From a virus (taxonomy: Duplodnaviria > Heunggongvirae > Uroviricota > Caudoviricetes): a DNA stretch of 21,490 nt. This document shows positions 3,069-18,901 of this stretch, piece by piece. Where the stretch lies: IMG/VR virus record IMGVR_UViG_2711768030_000006. The stretch is one strand, 5' to 3'. The notes under the pieces were generated by a model. The model saw only the letters and a list, made by a program, of their open reading frames with translations, was not told the origin of the DNA and made no database searches. Position numbers and translations under genes: made by a program. How positions within the stretch are numbered: position 1 is the stretch's first letter; each line of letters opens with the position of its first letter.

Positions 3069-3671
3069 ATGAGCTATTTTCTGCGCAAAAAATGGATGGT
3101 AAATTTGTCCGGGTCAGGAAAAATTTTATGGGCGCTAAACATGAAAAAAGATTCGTATCCTTATTTGATTTGCATGACAGTTTCAGGGCTGATCTTTATT
3201 TTCCTTTTCTTCTGGTGGCGGGCAGATATCTACAGGGTCACGTTTCTTAATCAGAGTATATCCCACTATTACATTCTGTTTAGCATGGGAATAGCTTTTC
3301 TGTTATCTCTGTTTTGGGTTAAGAAGGGGATAGTAAAACAAAGCGGCTGGAAGAGTCTGTCAGCATACCTTAAGGTTTATGCAGGGATGTGCATATTTGC
3401 TGGATTTTTTCTGATTATACCCCTTACGACACTAACTTATTTTTTGCCTGGAGAGACATCGTCTTATGTTGCACCGTATCGGTATACTTCCGGTAGTTCA
3501 AAAAGTTGTTCTGGAGCTGAGGTGGATGACCCCGATCTACATGAGAATATTCGCATTTGCTATCCGTATGGCAATTATGAGTACGATAATATTATCTATG
3601 TTGAAAAGAAAATTAATATATTAGGTGCGGTAGTGACATATGCACAGACCGCGCGTGATGATACTGAATGA
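3069..3671 (+). CDS. Hypothetical integral membrane protein (3 predicted TM helices plus about 70-aa Cys/Tyr-rich C-terminal domain); start uncertain (ATG at 3069, 3096 or 3141)
   Basis: 200-codon ORF in strongly AT-rich DNA (about 35% GC in sampled lines); hydrophobic segments LICMTVSGLIFIFLFFWW, YYILFSMGIAFLLSLFWV, VYAGMCIFAGFFLIIPLTTLTYFL; opposite strand to the surrounding pL operon; no recognisable lambda counterpart. Confidence 0.6.
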   Translation: MSYFLRKKWMVNLSGSGKILWALNMKKDSYPYLICMTVSGLIFIFLFFWWRADIYRVTFLNQSISHYYILFSMGIAFLLSLFWVKKGIVKQSGWKSLSAYLKVYAGMCIFAGFFLIIPLTTLTYFLPGETSSYVAPYRYTSGSSKSCSGAEVDDPDLHENIRICYPYGNYEYDNIIYVEKKINILGAVVTYAQTARDDTE

Positions 3672-4497: not shown

Positions 4498-4685
4498 ACC
4501 TGGTCTCTCTCATCTGCTTCTGCTTTCGCCACCATCATTTCCAGCTTTTGTGAAAGGGATGCGGCTAACGTATGAAATTCTTCGTCTGTTTCTACTGGTA
4601 TTGGCACAAACCTGACTCCAATTTGAGCGAGGCTATGTGCCATCTCGATACTCGTTCTTAACTCAACGGGAGATGCTTTGTGCAT
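4494..4685 (-). CDS. Lambda Orf63-like protein (63 aa)
   Basis: 63-aa ORF at the lambda-equivalent position, overlapping orf60a by 28 nt as in lambda. Confidence 0.8.
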   Translation of the reverse strand: MHKASPVELRTSIEMAHSLAQIGVRFVPIPVETDEEFHTLAASLSQKLEMMVAKAEADERDQV

Positions 4686-4840
4686 ACAGCTCCCCGTTTA
4701 TTATTTATCTCCTCAGCCAGCCGCTGTGCTTTCAGGGGATTTCTGATAACAGAAAGGCCGGGAAATACCCAGCCTCGCTTTGTAATGGAGTAGACGAAAG
4801 TGATCGCGCCTACCCGGATATTATCGTGAGGATGCGTCAT
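4658..4840 (-). CDS. Lambda Orf60a-like protein (60 aa)
   Basis: 60-aa ORF from an ATG that overlaps the exo stop (ATGA at 4837-4840). Confidence 0.75.
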
Positions 4841-5517
4841 CGCCATTGCTCCCCAAATACAAAACCAATTTCAGCCAGTGCCTCGTCCATTTTTTCGATG
4901 AACTCCGGCACCATCTCGTCAAAACTCGCCATGTAATTTTCATCCCGCTCAACCACGACATAATGCAGGCCTTCACGCTTCATTCGTGGGTCATAGTTGG
5001 CAAAGTACCAGGCATCTTTTCGCGTCACCCACATGCTGTACTGCACCTGGGCCATGTAAGCCGACTTTATGGCCTCGAAACCACCGAGCCGGAATTTCAT
5101 GAAATCCCGGGAGGTAAACGGGCATTTCAGTTCAAGGCCGTTACCGTCACTGCATAAACCATCGGGAGAGCAGGCGGTGCGCATACTTTCGTCGCGATAG
5201 ATGATCGGGGATTCAGTAACATTCACGCCGGAAGTAAACTCAAACAGGGCTCTGGCGTCGTTCTCGTACTGTTTTCCCCAGGCCAGCGCCTTAGCATTAA
5301 CTTCCGGAGCCACACCGGTGCAAACCTCAGCCAGCAGGGTGTGGAAGTAGGACATTTTCATGTCAGGCCACTTCTTTCCTGAGCGGGGCTTTGCTATCAC
5401 GTTGTGAACTTCTGAAGCGGTGATGACGCCGAGCCGTAATTTGTGCCATGCATCATCCCCCTGTTCGACAGCTCTCACGTCGATCCCGGTATGCTGCAGG
5501 ATAATGTCCGGTGTCAT
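4837..5517 (-). CDS. exo: Lambda exonuclease (Red-alpha), 226 aa
   Basis: Full-length match to lambda Exo ([50 protein letters not shown]...); ATGA overlap with bet. Confidence 0.95.
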
Positions 5518-6299
5518 GCTGCCACCTTCTGCTCAGTGGCTTTCTGTTTCAGGAATCCAAGAGCTTTCACTGCTTCGGCCTGTGTCAGTTCTGACGATGC
5601 GCGAATGTCGCGGCGAAATATCTGGGAACAGAGCGGCAATAAGTCGTCATCCCATGTTTTATCCAGGGCGATCAGCAGAGTGTTAATCTCCTGCATGGTT
5701 TCATCGTTAACCGGAGTGATGTCGCGTTCTGGCTGACGTTCTGCAGTGTATGCAGTATTTTCGACAATGCGCTCGGCTTCATCCTTGTCATAGATACCAG
5801 CAAATCCGAAGGCCAGACGGGCACACTGAATCATGGCTTTATGCCGTAACATCCGTTTGGGATGCGACTGCCACGGCCCCGTGATTTCTCTGCCTTCGCG
5901 GGTTTTGAATGGTTCGCGGCGGCATTCATCCATCCATTCGGTAACGCAGATCGGATGATTACGGTCCTTGCGGTAAATCCGGCATGTACAGGATTCATTG
6001 TCCTGCTCAAAGTCCATGCCATCAAACTGCTGGTTTTCATTGATGATGCGGGACCAGCCATCAACGCCCACCACCGGAACGATGCCATTCTGCTTATCAG
6101 GAAAGGCGTAAATTTCTTTCGTCCATGGATTAAGGCCGTACTGGTTGGCAACGATCAGTAATGCGATGAACTGCGCATCGCTGGCATCACCTTTAAATGC
6201 CGTCTGGCGAAGAGTGGTGATCAGTTCCTGTGGGTCGACAGAATCCATGCCGACACGTTCAGCCAGCTTCCCAGCCAGCGTTGCGAGTGCTGTACTCAT
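5514..6299 (-). CDS. bet: Bet (Red-beta) single-strand annealing protein, 261 aa
   Basis: Full-length match to lambda Bet ([48 protein letters not shown]...). Confidence 0.95.
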
Positions 6300-6819: not shown

Positions 6820-6952
6820 TTTTTGGGACTCCTGGCTGATTAAGTATGTCGATAAGGCGTTTCCATCCGTCACGTAATTTACGGGTGATTCGTTCAAGTA
6901 AAGATTCGGAAGGGCAGCCAGCAACAGGCCACCCTGCAATGGCATATTGCAT
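6788..6952 (-). CDS. cIII: cIII, FtsH inhibitor that stabilises cII, 54 aa
   Basis: [54 protein letters not shown]. Confidence 0.9.
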   Translation of the reverse strand: MQYAIAGWPVAGCPSESLLERITRKLRDGWKRLIDILNQPGVPKNGSNTYGYPD

Positions 6953-7024
6953 GGTGTGCTCCTTATTTATACATAACGAAAAACGCCTCGAGTGAAGCGT
7001 TATTGGTATGCGGTAAAACCGCAC

Positions 7025-9201: not shown

Positions 9202-10556
<1,355 letters not shown>

Positions 10557-14486: not shown

Positions 14487-14623
14487 TGTTTGAGTTTAAT
14501 ATGGCAGAACTTCTTCGCCACCGCTGGGGGCGTCTGCGCTTATATCGTTTCCCCGGTTCTGTTTTGACCGATTACCGAATACTGAAGAATTACGCCAAAA
14601 CACTGACAGGAGCAGGAGTATGA
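14483..14623 (+). CDS. ylcG: YlcG-like small protein, 46 aa
   Basis: Hand-translated [46 protein letters not shown]; overlaps the rusA stop; sits between rusA and Q as in DLP12. Confidence 0.6.
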
Positions 14624-14708
14624 AGTCAGAGATAACAATCAACTAATACTGTTTTGTTGATTTTTGCTTGTAATTGGCGTTCTGGTCTGAGTTTTGTGGA
14701 GTAAGTTG

Positions 14709-15086
14709 ATGCGTGATATTCAGATGGTTCTTGAGCGTTGGGGAGCGTGGGCGGCTAATAATCATGAAGATGTGACCTGGTCGTCCATTGCCGCCGGTTT
14801 TAAGGGATTAATTCCTTCAAAAGTAAAATCTCGCCCACAATGTTGTGACGATGACGCGATGATCATTTGCGGGTGCATGGCCCGTCTGAAAAAGAACAAC
14901 AGCGATTTGCATGATTTATTGGTGGACTATTATGTCGGCGGCATGACTTTTATGGCGCTTGCACGTAAGCATGGGCGATCTGATTGTTGGGTTGGCAGGA
15001 TGCTTCAGAAAGCTGAGGGCGTAGTGGAGGGTATGCTGATGGTGTTGGATCTCCGATTGGAGATGGATGCTGATTGTTCGAAATAA
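14709..15086 (+). CDS. Late-gene antiterminator Q, short phage-82/DLP12 QuuD type, 125 aa
   Basis: Cys-rich zinc-binding-like motif ([16 protein letters not shown]); GGAG Shine-Dalgarno 7 nt before ATG; position immediately upstream of a terminator and the late region. Confidence 0.75.
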
Positions 15087-15184
15087 TTAAAGGAAAAGTT
15101 GCTGTCTGATTGTCATTAGTCTAACATTTTAAATGTTGGAATCGCAACGTAGTTATTATCATATAACAGCTTGTTTCCTGATTT
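15087..15184 (+). promoter_or_regulatory. Candidate late promoter pR' and Q-utilisation region
   Basis: AT-rich interval between Q stop and the tR'-like terminator; the hexamers could not be placed reliably. Confidence 0.35.
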
Positions 15185-15213
15185 AGCCAGCCTCCCCAAA
15201 GGCTGGTTTTTTT
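15185..15213 (+). terminator. tR'-like intrinsic terminator
   Basis: Stem ccagcct (15187-15193) / aggctgg (15200-15206) followed by TTTTTTT. Confidence 0.8.
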
Positions 15214-15241
15214 CTAATAAGTATTATTTCGGGTAGGGATT

Positions 15242-15766
15242 TTATTGTTTAACCCATAATAATTCATTGACATTGAATCCCAACTTTTGAGCGGTTCGCA
15301 CATAGTCTGCTTTTACTTTATCTGGAATAGTTGGGGTCCTTGCCAGAATCCATAGGTATTCTCTGTTCGGACCACTGACAAGAGCATACTTATACTCATC
15401 ATCCAGTTTGATTACATTATAGCCACCATAGAAGGGGCCAAAAAACGAAACCTTCAATGCTGCAGTTTTAGTATCTCCAGTAAAGTATGCTTTACCTTCG
15501 CTCTCGCTCCATTTATTTTTCGTTGGATCGTATCCACGGTTAAGTACACGAATCCCTCCGTCGTTCCGTTTTCCATAAGTAGCGCTGACCTGTTCCAGAC
15601 CACGTTCGAACCGGTTCTCGAGGCGAGCTATTTCATACCATTTTCCGAGGTAGCGGTTGGCGTCAAAATTTGTAATCGGCTGCACACCTTTAGGTGGTGT
15701 CGGGGCCTTACATGCTATAAGAGTGAAAGAGAGTGCAATGCCAGTCAACACAGGCCATAACTTCAT
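15242..15766 (-). CDS. Blc-like bacterial lipocalin, outer-membrane lipoprotein, 174 aa
   Basis: Lipoprotein signal with LIAC lipobox; lipocalin motifs NFDANRYLGKWYEIARLENRFERG and FTGDTKTAALKVSFFGPFYGGYNVIKLD closely resemble E. coli Blc; AGGA Shine-Dalgarno. Confidence 0.85.
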   Translation of the reverse strand: MKLWPVLTGIALSFTLIACKAPTPPKGVQPITNFDANRYLGKWYEIARLENRFERGLEQVSATYGKRNDGGIRVLNRGYDPTKNKWSESEGKAYFTGDTKTAALKVSFFGPFYGGYNVIKLDDEYKYALVSGPNREYLWILARTPTIPDKVKADYVRTAQKLGFNVNELLWVKQ

Positions 15767-15958
15767 AATAAATCCTGTACTTTTGATAGTTGAGAGTAAG
15801 TATGAAAGATAGATGATTACGACCGATCACTTAAAGAACTTTCATACTATATTAGGAATAGTCCATAACAGAAAAATTGTCAGTGATGACGCCAGAAAGG
15901 CAATTTATTCCGTGCACTACACAGTTTATGTGTTAATGAATTAGTCAAGGGGGAGAAT

Positions 15959-16918
15959 ATGATAAAAAAACCTGTGATTGGAATCAGCGGTTGTTTGGCC
16001 GGTTCTGCTGTTCGTTTTGATGGTGGTCACAAAAGAGCTGACTTTTTAATGGACAAATTAGTGGAATGGGTAACATTCAGACCAGTATGTCCGGAAATGG
16101 CTATAGGGCTGCCAGTTCCGCGTCCTGCTCTACGTCTTGTGCGCTCGACGCAAGGAAATATACGGATGTGTTTCAGCCACGACCAGAATGAGGATGTGAC
16201 AGAGAGAATGACAGAGTTTAGTCGTTCTTATATGGACAAATTAAAGGATGTATCGGGGTTTGTGGTTTGTGCTAAATCTCCCAGCTGTGGCATGGAGCGC
16301 GTGCGTGTCTATGATGAAAATGGTAATCGAGGTCGTAAAGATGGAGTGGGACTATTTACGAGCACTTTGATGGAAAAGTTTTCCTGGCTACCGGTTGAAG
16401 AGGATGGGCGATTACATGATCCAGTGCTTCGTGAGAATTTTGTTGAAAGAGTTTTTGCTTTGCATGAGCTCAATCACCTTTACAAGGAGAAATTATCAAG
16501 AAGAGAGTTATTAGCTTTTCATAGTCGTTATAAGCTTCAGTTGTTGGCGCATAGTCAGGCAGGCTATAAAGATATGGGACCATTTGTGGCTGCAATACAC
16601 GAGTGGGCGGACCTTGAATCATACTTTGAGGTGTATCGTGATAAGCTGATGGCGATTCTCAGAAAACCTGCATCACGTAAAAATCACACGAATGTGCTGA
16701 TGCATATACAGGGGTATTTTAGTAACTACTTAAGTACACGCCAGCGTAAAGAGTTGAGCGAGGTTATACTTAACTATCGTTCTGGCACATTACCTCTTCT
16801 TGCGCCGTTGACTCTGCTGAAGCATTATCTGGGTGAGTATCCTAATGATTACTTGCTTACACAGAATTACTTCGATCCCTATCCGGACGAACTGGCTCTA
16901 AGACTGATGGTAAATTAA
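15959..16918 (+). CDS. DUF523 (TudS-like, cysteine-rich putative Fe-S) fused to DUF1722 (YbgA-like) protein, 319 aa
   Basis: N-terminal half has Cys spacing GISGCLAG...PVCPE...CAKSPSCG typical of DUF523; C-terminal half resembles YbgA-type DUF1722; GGGGGAG Shine-Dalgarno. Confidence 0.7.
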   Translation: MIKKPVIGISGCLAGSAVRFDGGHKRADFLMDKLVEWVTFRPVCPEMAIGLPVPRPALRLVRSTQGNIRMCFSHDQNEDVTERMTEFSRSYMDKLKDVSGFVVCAKSPSCGMERVRVYDENGNRGRKDGVGLFTSTLMEKFSWLPVEEDGRLHDPVLRENFVERVFALHELNHLYKEKLSRRELLAFHSRYKLQLLAHSQAGYKDMGPFVAAIHEWADLESYFEVYRDKLMAILRKPASRKNHTNVLMHIQGYFSNYLSTRQRKELSEVILNYRSGTLPLLAPLTLLKHYLGEYPNDYLLTQNYFDPYPDELALRLMVN

Positions 16919-17269
16919 TTGTATGCGATATCATCCAAAAGGATGAGTTCCTGCATGCAGGATATTTACAATCGTAAAAACTACACTATGATACCCAGAG
17001 TGTCAGTTTGTATAAAAACTCTGTTTACGCTGAAGAAACAATTGAGATGCAACTTAAAGTTGGTAAACATGCCAGTCAAAATATATAATATTATGATTCC
17101 ACGCAGCTATATATAATATAACGGATTGGTTTAATAATTTGTCTTTGTGAGTTAAATACATAATTTTATACTTGTGATGCAATGAAATTTTCCTTATTGT
17201 TGAACTGGCGAATATTGATTTTCCACCTATACTTACCTGGTGTAACCCCAATGATATCAGGTGGATAAT

Positions 17270-18001
17270 ATGCCATACATATGTTCTATCATTTTGGTGT
17301 TGAACTCGTTTGATGTCCGAATTGGTAAAGAAGATATTTTGTTTAAAAAAGGAAGTGCTGTTCTCATTGATTACAATTTAAAAGATTTTTTTTCATCAAA
17401 TATAGATCATGTAATGATCGTAGATGTTGAAGAGAAAACAGTTAATGATTTCTTTAAAAGCAACACACTCTCACCTTTTTCTGTAAGAAGGTTTTATCCG
17501 GCATACTTGATGGTGGAATGTGAAGATTTTTCATTGTTAAAGAACTTGATTGCATGCTTGAATTGTGATGGCAGAACTGTGGATTTTGTTAGAAATCAAA
17601 TATCACTTGCATGTCTTGCTATCTTATCTTCAGAGAAAATAGTGCAAAGTTTTTTATTTGGATGTCTTAATAGTTTAGGAAGTAAAGTTAAGGCTATTAT
17701 TCACACGGATATATCTGCAGCATGGAGACTTTGTGATATATCTTCAAGACTGTATCTGAGTGAAAGTCTGTTAAAAAGAAAATTAAAGCACGAAGGCTTA
17801 TCATTTAGTAAGTTAATTCTTGAAGAGCGAATGGTGATGGCGGAAAGGTTATTAAGCTACAATTTATATTCTGTTGGAAAAGTTGCTGAGATATGCGGTT
17901 ATGAAAACACGTCATATTTTGTAAGTGTTTTCAGAAGGTATTTTGGTGTTCCTCCCCATCAATATTCATCAAGATTTTTTTTAGAAAAAGACATGATGTA
18001 A
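17270..18001 (+). CDS. AraC/XylS-family transcriptional regulator (AppY/GadX/Rns-like), 243 aa from ATG 17270 (GTG at 17261 also possible)
   Basis: C-terminal double HTH (WRLCDISSRLYLSESLLKRKLKHEGLSFSKLILEERMVMAERLL...VGKVAEICGYENTSYFVSVFRRYFGVPP); AGGTGG Shine-Dalgarno 5 nt upstream; very AT-rich gene and leader. Confidence 0.85.
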   Translation: MPYICSIILVLNSFDVRIGKEDILFKKGSAVLIDYNLKDFFSSNIDHVMIVDVEEKTVNDFFKSNTLSPFSVRRFYPAYLMVECEDFSLLKNLIACLNCDGRTVDFVRNQISLACLAILSSEKIVQSFLFGCLNSLGSKVKAIIHTDISAAWRLCDISSRLYLSESLLKRKLKHEGLSFSKLILEERMVMAERLLSYNLYSVGKVAEICGYENTSYFVSVFRRYFGVPPHQYSSRFFLEKDMM

Positions 18002-18062
18002 CGTGATGCGTTTTAATGATTTTGTAATTTTCGTATTTGATAATTGTATGATGCTTTCAGCT

Positions 18063-18095
18063 ACGCCAGAATAATCGCGGCGTTTTTCTTTTTGA
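18063..18095 (+). terminator. Weak terminator-like hairpin after the AraC-family gene
   Basis: Short stem acgcc / ggcgt followed by TTTTTCTTTTT. Confidence 0.25.
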
Positions 18096-18188
18096 ATAGA
18101 TGTTCAAGCCTTACGCTAATGTAACTTCTATACCTTTCCTCTTCGTTCCGAACCGTGTACACCATCCGTTATTTGCGGAGGTGAGGCT

Positions 18189-18404
18189 ATGAAATCCATG
18201 GATAAGTTAACAACGGGCATTGCCTACGGCACCTCCGCAGGCAGTGCTGGCTACTGGTTTTTACAGCTGCTCGATAAAGTCACGCCCTCACAGTGGGCAG
18301 CAATAGGTGTGCTGGGTAGCTTGGTATTTGGCCTGCTGACGTACCTGACAAACCTTTATTTCAAGATTAAAGAAGATAAGCGCAAGGCTGCGAGAGGTGA
18401 ATAA
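18189..18404 (+). CDS. S: Class II holin of phage-21 type (pinholin S21) with dual start (71-aa antiholin from 18189, 68-aa holin from 18198)
   Basis: [71 protein letters not shown] matches S21; two TM segments; MKSM dual-start motif. Confidence 0.92.
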
Positions 18405-18901
18405 TGCCTCCATCATTACGAAAAGCCGTTGCTGCTGCTATTGGTGGCGGAGCAATTGCTATAGCATCAGTGTTAATCACTGGCCCAAGTGGTAACGATG
18501 GTCTGGAAGGTGTCAGCTACATACCATACAAAGATATCGTTGGCGTATGGACTGTATGTCACGGGCATACAGGAAAAGACATCATTCCCGGTAAAACGTA
18601 TACCGAAGCAGAATGCAAAGCCCTCCTGAATAAAGACCTTGCCACGGTAGCCAGACAAATTAACCCGTACATCAAAGTCGATATACCGGAAACAACGCGC
18701 GGCGCTCTTTACTCGTTCGTCTATAACGTGGGCGCAGGCAATTTCAGAACATCTACTCTTCTTCGCAAAATAAACCAGGGCGATATCAAGGGCGCATGTG
18801 ACCAGCTACGTCGCTGGGCATACGCTGGCGGTAAGCAATGGAAAGGCCTGATGACTCGTCGTGAGATTGAGCGTGAGGTCTGTTTGTGGGGGCAACAATG
18901 A
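18404..18901 (+). CDS. R: SAR endolysin (phage-21 R-type lysozyme with N-terminal signal-anchor-release domain), 165 aa
   Basis: Gly/Ala-rich N-terminal segment [23 protein letters not shown] followed by a lysozyme domain; matches R21. Confidence 0.92.

Follow-up and report, generated by a model that had tools for sequence, protein, structure and literature searches.

A lambda-type prophage carried on a 21,490-nucleotide stretch of DNA (the window) contains, between its late antiterminator gene Q and its lysis genes, a gene that probably encodes RudS, a desulfidase of 4-thiouridine (s4U) in tRNA; we put the probability of this molecular function, assigned by orthology, at roughly 0.8. RudS is the name given to the TudS-DUF1722 fusion protein characterised in 2024 by Jamontas et al. 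in NAR as a [4Fe-4S] desulfidase that erases s4U from tRNA in vivo and in vitro (PMC11417400). Because the enzyme class and an assayed phage orthologue are already published, the gene itself is of a known kind and is not a discovery. This chemistry and specificity towards tRNA have both been demonstrated in close orthologues; the timing of expression and the benefit of the phage copy we infer, and its biological role is much less certain than its molecular function. The gene and its surroundings comprise the following features:

14694-15086, + strand: late antiterminator Q of the phage 82/21 type (PF06530)
15185-15217, + strand: intrinsic terminator, a 9-bp stem followed by a T-run
15242-15766, - strand: Blc-like outer-membrane lipocalin lipoprotein (lipobox LIAC; PF08212, E = 7e-44), divergent from rudS
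15767-15958, no strand assigned: blc-rudS divergent intergenic region of 192 bp, holding the rudS ribosome-binding site and presumed promoters
15959-16918, + strand: rudS, 319 aa, TudS-DUF1722 fusion, predicted tRNA 4-thiouridine desulfidase (open reading frame, Pfam, 93% identity to RudS_vir)
15977-16405, + strand: catalytic TudS/DUF523 domain of RudS, residues 7-149 (PF04463; sequence match to TudS, PDB 6z92; Foldseek match to 6z96)
16532-16885, + strand: DUF1722 domain of RudS, residues 192-309 (PF08349), all-helical in the AlphaFold model
17261-18001, + strand: AraC/YdeO-like regulator (PF12833, PF00165; PGAP start 17270), 32% GC
18189-18901, + strand: holin (essD-type) and lysozyme (rrrD-type), with which the late lysis genes begin 3' of the cassette, with coordinates adjusted for a 66-bp difference in int

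The rudS reading frame is intact from ATG to stop, and a ribosome-binding site (AAGGGGGAG, 15948-15956) lies just 5' of it. Residues 7-149 of its product match PF04463 (DUF523, since renamed '2-thiouracil desulfurase') with E = 3e-40 and 137.9 bits (Pfam cutoff 34.7), and residues 192-309 match PF08349 (DUF1722) with E = 1.9e-40 and 138.2 bits (cutoff 22.5); both matches are well above chance, and together they place an N-terminal TudS/DUF523 domain and a C-terminal DUF1722 domain in one polypeptide, the arrangement by which RudS is recognised. The protein is identical at 298 of 319 positions (93%; 21 substitutions, no gaps) to H3V29_gp66 of phage 1H12 (NC_049947), a phage that surfaced independently in a DNA search with the window; gp66, which has the same 319 aa length and the same Cys12, Cys44 and Cys110, is the RudS_vir assayed by Jamontas et al. 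(PMC11417400). RudS_ST (ORF319; STM1389 of Salmonella LT2) has these three cysteines as well, according to the listing in that paper rather than an alignment, and the sampled chromosomal RudS proteins of enterobacteria (e.g. Enterobacter cloacae, Citrobacter) are 319 aa long and approximately 66-77% identical to the window protein, with the same catalytic residues.

In RefSeq the product is named 'YbgA family protein' (WP_000592546.1), a label that the whole of RudS bears because its C-terminal residues 160-315 (of 319) match the YbgA model NF007549. The score of this match, 190.8 bits, falls below the equivalog cutoff of 237, and the window protein differs from E. coli YbgA (b0707), a DUF1722-only protein of ~169 aa that resembles the C-terminus of RudS, has no catalytic domain and leaves s4U unchanged. 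PHROGs places the rudS family in PHROG 3275, of unknown function; the annotation in both resources could be upgraded.

The earlier note had recognised in this protein a TudS-like fold fused to a YbgA-type DUF1722, and had suggested comparing an AlphaFold model with TudS structures; Pfam, a PDB sequence match and Foldseek bear the proposal out. TudS is the sole match in a phmmer search of the PDB (6z92, E = 2e-4), with C12 and C44 of RudS aligned to C10 and C43 of TudS. The AlphaFold model of the window protein is moderate (mean pLDDT 71; residues 14-30 and 282-319 below 50), and TudS crystal structures are its only confident Foldseek matches, led by 6z96_A and 6zw9_A (probability 1.00; target-normalised TM 0.60 over 143 columns), with no match outside TudS at E < 0.8 and no solved structure in the PDB matching the DUF1722 half. 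With TudS (6Z92/6Z96/6ZW9) the window protein shares the fold, the three-cysteine [4Fe-4S] site and the glutamate and serine residues, at ~28% identity over 143 residues; however, TudS is a single domain of ~150-166 aa that acts on free thiouracils or 4-thio-UMP, whereas the window protein adds DUF1722.

The predicted [4Fe-4S] ligands are C12, C44 and C110, in the numbering given for RudS_vir and RudS_ST (PMC11417400). They lie in the motifs GISGCL (residues 8-13), VCPE (43-46) and CAKSPSCG (104-111), which had been read in the earlier note as a three-cysteine pattern; all three motifs are present, but in the third only C110 is conserved in the family, C104 being K or M in most of 140 relatives. 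Among these 140 representatives, which are at most 56% identical and were drawn from a library of 1.84 billion proteins, C12, C44 and C110 are kept in 136-138 and the catalytic residues E46, S107, S109 and R55 in 139, 139, 131 and 138, respectively (94-99% conservation for the seven positions); none of the seven varies among 24 enterobacterial homologues. By offset from the conserved cysteines rather than by direct alignment, E46, R55, S107 and S109 are equated with E51, R60, S111 and S113 of RudS_KT, in which mutation of any of these four residues or of C17, C49 or C114 abolishes activity (PMC11417400). In the C-terminal half, a PASRKNHT motif (S239, R240, T244), a candidate counterpart of the tRNA-contact loop of RudS_KT, is invariant in the 24 enterobacterial homologues and weaker in the family at large, with S or T in 115 and R in 84 of the 140 at the respective columns. 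The DUF1722 domain of RudS_KT is proposed to bind the anticodon arm of tRNA, with loop residues S243, R244 and T246 as proposed contacts to the anticodon region, and mutations in this loop reduce activity (PMC11417400).

The protein had also been taken, in the same note, for an enzyme of thiolated uracil derivatives. The TudS-like desulfidase fold stands, but the preferred substrate of RudS is s4U in tRNA rather than free thiouracils or nucleotides (PMC11417400). In that study, a [4Fe-4S] cluster and s4U desulfidation in vitro were reported for RudS_KT, and six RudS proteins, including RudS_vir, lowered s4U in E. coli tRNA 4.7- to 26-fold (18-fold for RudS_ST, than which RudS_vir was less active at a comparable protein level), whereas neither stand-alone TudS nor E. 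coli YbgA lowered it. That the window protein functions instead as TudS does, in salvage or detoxification of free 4-thiouracil, 2-thiouracil or 4-thio-UMP from RNA turnover and not on intact tRNA, we judge very improbable. Its catalytic domain is a genuine TudS homologue, stand-alone TudS prefers 4-thio-UMP according to the literature, and with RudS_vir a uracil auxotroph grew on 4-thiouracil after a lag that was the shortest among the RudS proteins tested, so that RudS_vir does act to some degree on free thiouracil; however, no RudS rescued the auxotroph on 2-thiouracil, none equalled TudS on 4-thiouracil, and the authors' conclusion is that the primary substrates are not thiouracils (PMC11417400). 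The restriction of tRNA s4U removal to the fusion proteins and the reduced activity upon mutation of the proposed anticodon-contact loop likewise argue against salvage. A stand-alone TudS is recognised by its single domain and by rescue on 2- and 4-thiouracil; the window protein has a second domain, and the phenotype published for RudS_vir (PMC11417400) is a different one.

As a tRNA desulfidase, the window protein would hold a [4Fe-4S] cluster on C12, C44 and C110 of its TudS domain, with the fourth iron binding the sulfur of s4U; E46, positioned by R55, S107 and S109, would activate water, and oxygen would replace sulfur. The helical DUF1722 domain would dock the tRNA, which in our proposal would make s4U8 in whole tRNA, and not free thiouracil, the substrate. 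The net effect would be to convert the host s4U mark made by ThiI back to uridine.

The description of the gene as prophage cargo, also made in the earlier note, agrees with its surroundings. The prophage adjoins ybhC (ybhC-side attB) and encodes int, xis, exo, bet, gam, kil, cIII, N, a cI-like (LexA-type) repressor, cII, O, P, ren, a nin region (ninB/E/X), rusA, Q, holin, lysozyme, Rz and nohD/terminase. Between Q (14694-15086) and holin (18189-18404) lies a cassette of 3.1 kb consisting of the blc-like lipocalin gene, rudS and the AraC-like regulator gene; rudS is the middle gene and has the orientation of the late operon. The lipocalin scores 316 bits against the NCBIfam Blc subfamily (cutoff 267), and the best NCBIfam match of the AraC-like regulator, YdeO, reaches 127 bits, far under its cutoff of 348. 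Phage 1H12, like the window prophage a lambdoid temperate coliphage, has the same order of Q, blc (- strand), rudS, AraC-like gene, holin and endolysin; the flanking modules of the two are mosaic, with differing nin, lysis and immunity genes, and the spacer between rudS and the AraC-like gene is 65% identical. The AraC-like protein, a possible regulator of blc or rudS, shares 82% identity with 1H12 gp67 and ~52% with AraC-like genes of mEp332 and ev099, and it resembles the prophage-encoded AppY, PsrA/B and PatE treated in PMC10057817.

The only terminator-like site found in 14600-18500 is that at 15185-15217, directly after Q, a position that suggests a tR'-type terminator read through by Q-modified RNA polymerase. 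Because this sole terminator between Q and holin directly follows Q, and rudS is co-oriented, Q-antiterminated transcription should include rudS. The gene would then be expressed late after induction, and possibly from a promoter of its own in the lysogen. A sigma-70 scan upstream of rudS gave no convincing promoter (13 matches against a shuffled expectation of 11.5), and, since no strong consensus was found, a promoter function of the blc-rudS spacer is something that we only infer. The spacer is 90% identical to that of the 1H12 allele overall and ~96% identical in the blc-proximal 150 nt. A perfect inverted repeat of 10 nt (15799-15808 and 15839-15848) was considered as an operator and rejected, both arms being changed non-compensatorily in 1H12. 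A near-perfect palindrome, TCTAACATTT/AAATGTTGGA (15120-15140, + strand), lies just 3' of Q, ~60 nt before the terminator, and overlaps a possible pR' -10 element (TAACAT, with TTGCTG 17 nt upstream); it is a candidate for the late promoter or Q-utilisation region.

Elsewhere in the prophage, the sole Rfam match in the whole window, with none near rudS, is the cIII thermoregulator RNA Lambda_thermo (6907-6965, - strand; 88.5 bits, full length). The integrase gene (1419-2423, - strand), judged against otherwise 99.8%-identical prophages, has an in-frame deletion of 22 aa after residue 264 of the 356-aa form, within the catalytic domain, and given this deletion the prophage may be unable to excise. 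Two open reading frames have no Pfam or PADLOC match and belong to PHROGs 1416 and 2651, both of unknown function: 3069-3671 (+ strand), in the b-region and opposite to int/xis, and 9202-9678 (- strand), in the position of rex between N and the repressor gene, where exclusion or defence cargo is typically found.

What rudS does for the phage can be stated only tentatively. Less s4U would mean less near-UV cross-linking of s4U8 to C13, with less growth delay and a weaker stringent response, and E. coli would gain a trait that is chromosomal in Enterobacter, Citrobacter and Salmonella. It is possible, though we consider it doubtful, that RudS, expressed late, serves the phage as a tRNA 'eraser' that edits the host epitranscriptome. 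If the phage does use RudS as an eraser, the sunlight or UV that induces prophages through the SOS response would also cross-link s4U8 to C13 and trigger growth delay and the stringent response, while RudS made late or pre-emptively would strip s4U and let translation continue for virion production; ~20% of E. coli strains would then differ from K-12 in s4U dynamics. Gut E. coli meets little near-UV, which we count against a clear selective benefit of rudS. Overexpression of RudS_KT shortened the UVA growth delay of E. coli from ~105 to ~60 min, a phenotype that pertains to an overexpressed P. putida RudS and not to a phage copy at native level (PMC11417400).

A late role of another kind, in phage takeover or counter-defence, would consist of tRNA remodelling that destabilises s4U-dependent tRNAs or evades tRNA-directed defence, rather than of light protection; we regard it as very improbable. 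The placement of rudS within the late operon, in the same orientation as the lysis genes, is consistent with such a role, as are the lowering of tRNA-Tyr and tRNA-Ser levels reported in the literature for E. coli and V. cholerae upon loss of s4U and the lack, in the cassette, of the MerR regulator by which chromosomal rudS is tied to light-responsive control (PMC11417400). However, PADLOC models for defence and anti-defence-associated proteins match none of RudS, the Blc-like lipocalin, the AraC-like regulator or the DUF1398 protein at E <= 0.01, the literature examined describes no s4U-dependent defence system, and the joint arrival of rudS and its blc-like neighbour from a stress locus on a chromosome fits lysogenic conversion better. 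A defence reading of the cassette was dropped on the empty PADLOC scan of RudS and its neighbours, and the part in phage-host conflict on which the earlier note had speculated found no supporting evidence.

That note had further thought such a gene unusual on a prophage, but about one in five complete E. coli genomes carries rudS: it is present, almost always on the chromosome, in 1064 of 5426 (at least 80% coverage and at least 90% identity), and the whole cassette, 3.3 kb in this comparison, is present in 995. This prevalence contradicts the statement that E. coli lacks RudS, made in PMC11417400 and repeated in a 2026 review. Since so many E. coli genomes carry prophage rudS, strain-dependent s4U levels and UVA responses are to be expected in this species and would be easy to test. 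Among 50,697 deposited phage records, full-length rudS occurs only in 12 lambdoid coliphages. The order Q-blc-rudS-araC-lysozyme is found in 74 of 80 IMG/VR loci; the AraC-like gene is linked to rudS in 76 of the 80, and in 79 the match to Q begins ~1265 bp (1160-1266) before rudS does. Among these loci the nin region and the lysis genes differ, some lysozymes being only 33% identical. Near-constant spacing between Q and rudS with variable flanks indicates that the cassette and its Q / pR' module move together among mosaic phages; in cassette-free phages the homology of related Q alleles ends at ~15068, and homology to other lambdoid phages restarts at ~18162. The position between Q and holin and the loss of MerR pose the testable question of why a temperate phage carries an eraser of tRNA modification.

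That rudS is a neutral passenger, a chromosomal fragment that arrived by illegitimate recombination and hitch-hikes with a successful Q / pR' module, is highly unlikely, for although linkage to Q at near-constant spacing could alone explain its spread, and IS1 and IS2 insertions and truncated remnants exist, the catalytic residues are all intact, 1064 genomes hold a full-length reading frame, the 93%-identical allele is enzymatically active (PMC11417400), and dN/dS of 0.11-0.16 between phage alleles, which differ by dS = 0.29, indicates that rudS is under purifying selection and is maintained.

Individual disrupted copies were observed in E. coli MINF_9A, where rudS is split by IS1; in E. coli Z0117EC0098, where IS2 lies within the cassette; and in E. 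coli BL21, the host of the published RudS assays (PMC11417400), where only the first 147 nt remain, annotated '2-thiouracil desulfurase family protein'. Two loci of a metagenome-assembled genome named 'Candidatus Nanosynbacter sp.' (D148_maxbin.008) encode Q, Blc, RudS, AraC and lysozyme at 94-100% protein identity, almost certainly as a result of binning contamination.

Outside E. coli, the phage gene has its nearest relatives (66-77% identity) on the chromosomes of Citrobacter, Enterobacter, Leclercia, Klebsiella, Pectobacterium and others. In 36 of 64 chromosomal loci the order is blc-like (- strand), MlrA-like MerR, transthyretin-like and rudS (all + strand); in a few, such as that of C. 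sedlakii, blc (- strand) directly adjoins rudS (+ strand), which is the phage arrangement; in a further group the genes are DUF1365, CFA-synthase-like (CMAS), DUF3833 and rudS. Many chromosomal copies resemble the phage copy in having a divergent blc-like lipocalin gene upstream, and the phage lipocalin is ~80% identical to those that flank chromosomal rudS in Enterobacter, Leclercia and Citrobacter. Unlike its chromosomal counterparts, the phage rudS lies neither behind the MlrA-like MerR and transthyretin-like genes nor in a DUF1365-CMAS-DUF3833 group, but in a Q-dependent late operon beside an AraC-like gene. A tblastn search of the window with the E. cloacae MlrA-like, transthyretin-like, DUF3833, CMAS and DUF1365 proteins found none of them, the Blc homologue alone being present, and the typical, though not defining, neighbours of rudS (MerR/LitR, photolyase, carotenoid or CFA-type genes) are replaced here by phage Q, AraC-like and lysis genes. 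From the shared arrangement we conclude that the blc-rudS pair was captured as a unit from such a chromosomal locus, without MerR. The AraC-like gene is of probably separate origin, given its low GC content (32%, against 43-44% for blc and rudS). Comparison of the phage spacer with those of C. sedlakii and Citrobacter JGM124 reveals little conservation past the coding ends, and no recombination junction is definable; dS against the chromosomal homologues is saturated, so that donor and date of capture are not estimable. A literature search on YbgA, lipocalin and prophage together returned nothing pertinent, the bioRxiv match concerning mammalian lipocalin-2.

Linkage of the lipocalin with RudS is conserved in many Enterobacter, Leclercia and Citrobacter genomes. 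The pair between blc and rudS, an MlrA-like MerR gene and a gene of the periplasmic-type transthyretin/HIUase family, occurs at 4663-5898 of the E. cloacae locus L034 and in 35 other chromosomal loci; PMC11417400 offers no explanation of how the transthyretin-like gene relates to s4U or light biology. In two loci of Salmonella Derby, a 74%-identical RudS is encoded between ttcA and a DUF1367 phage gene/uspF. The ttcA-uspF position is one that we take to be the Rac-type attachment site of E. coli K-12, which points, for Salmonella Derby, to a prophage remnant separate from the SPI-2-associated STM1389 copy.
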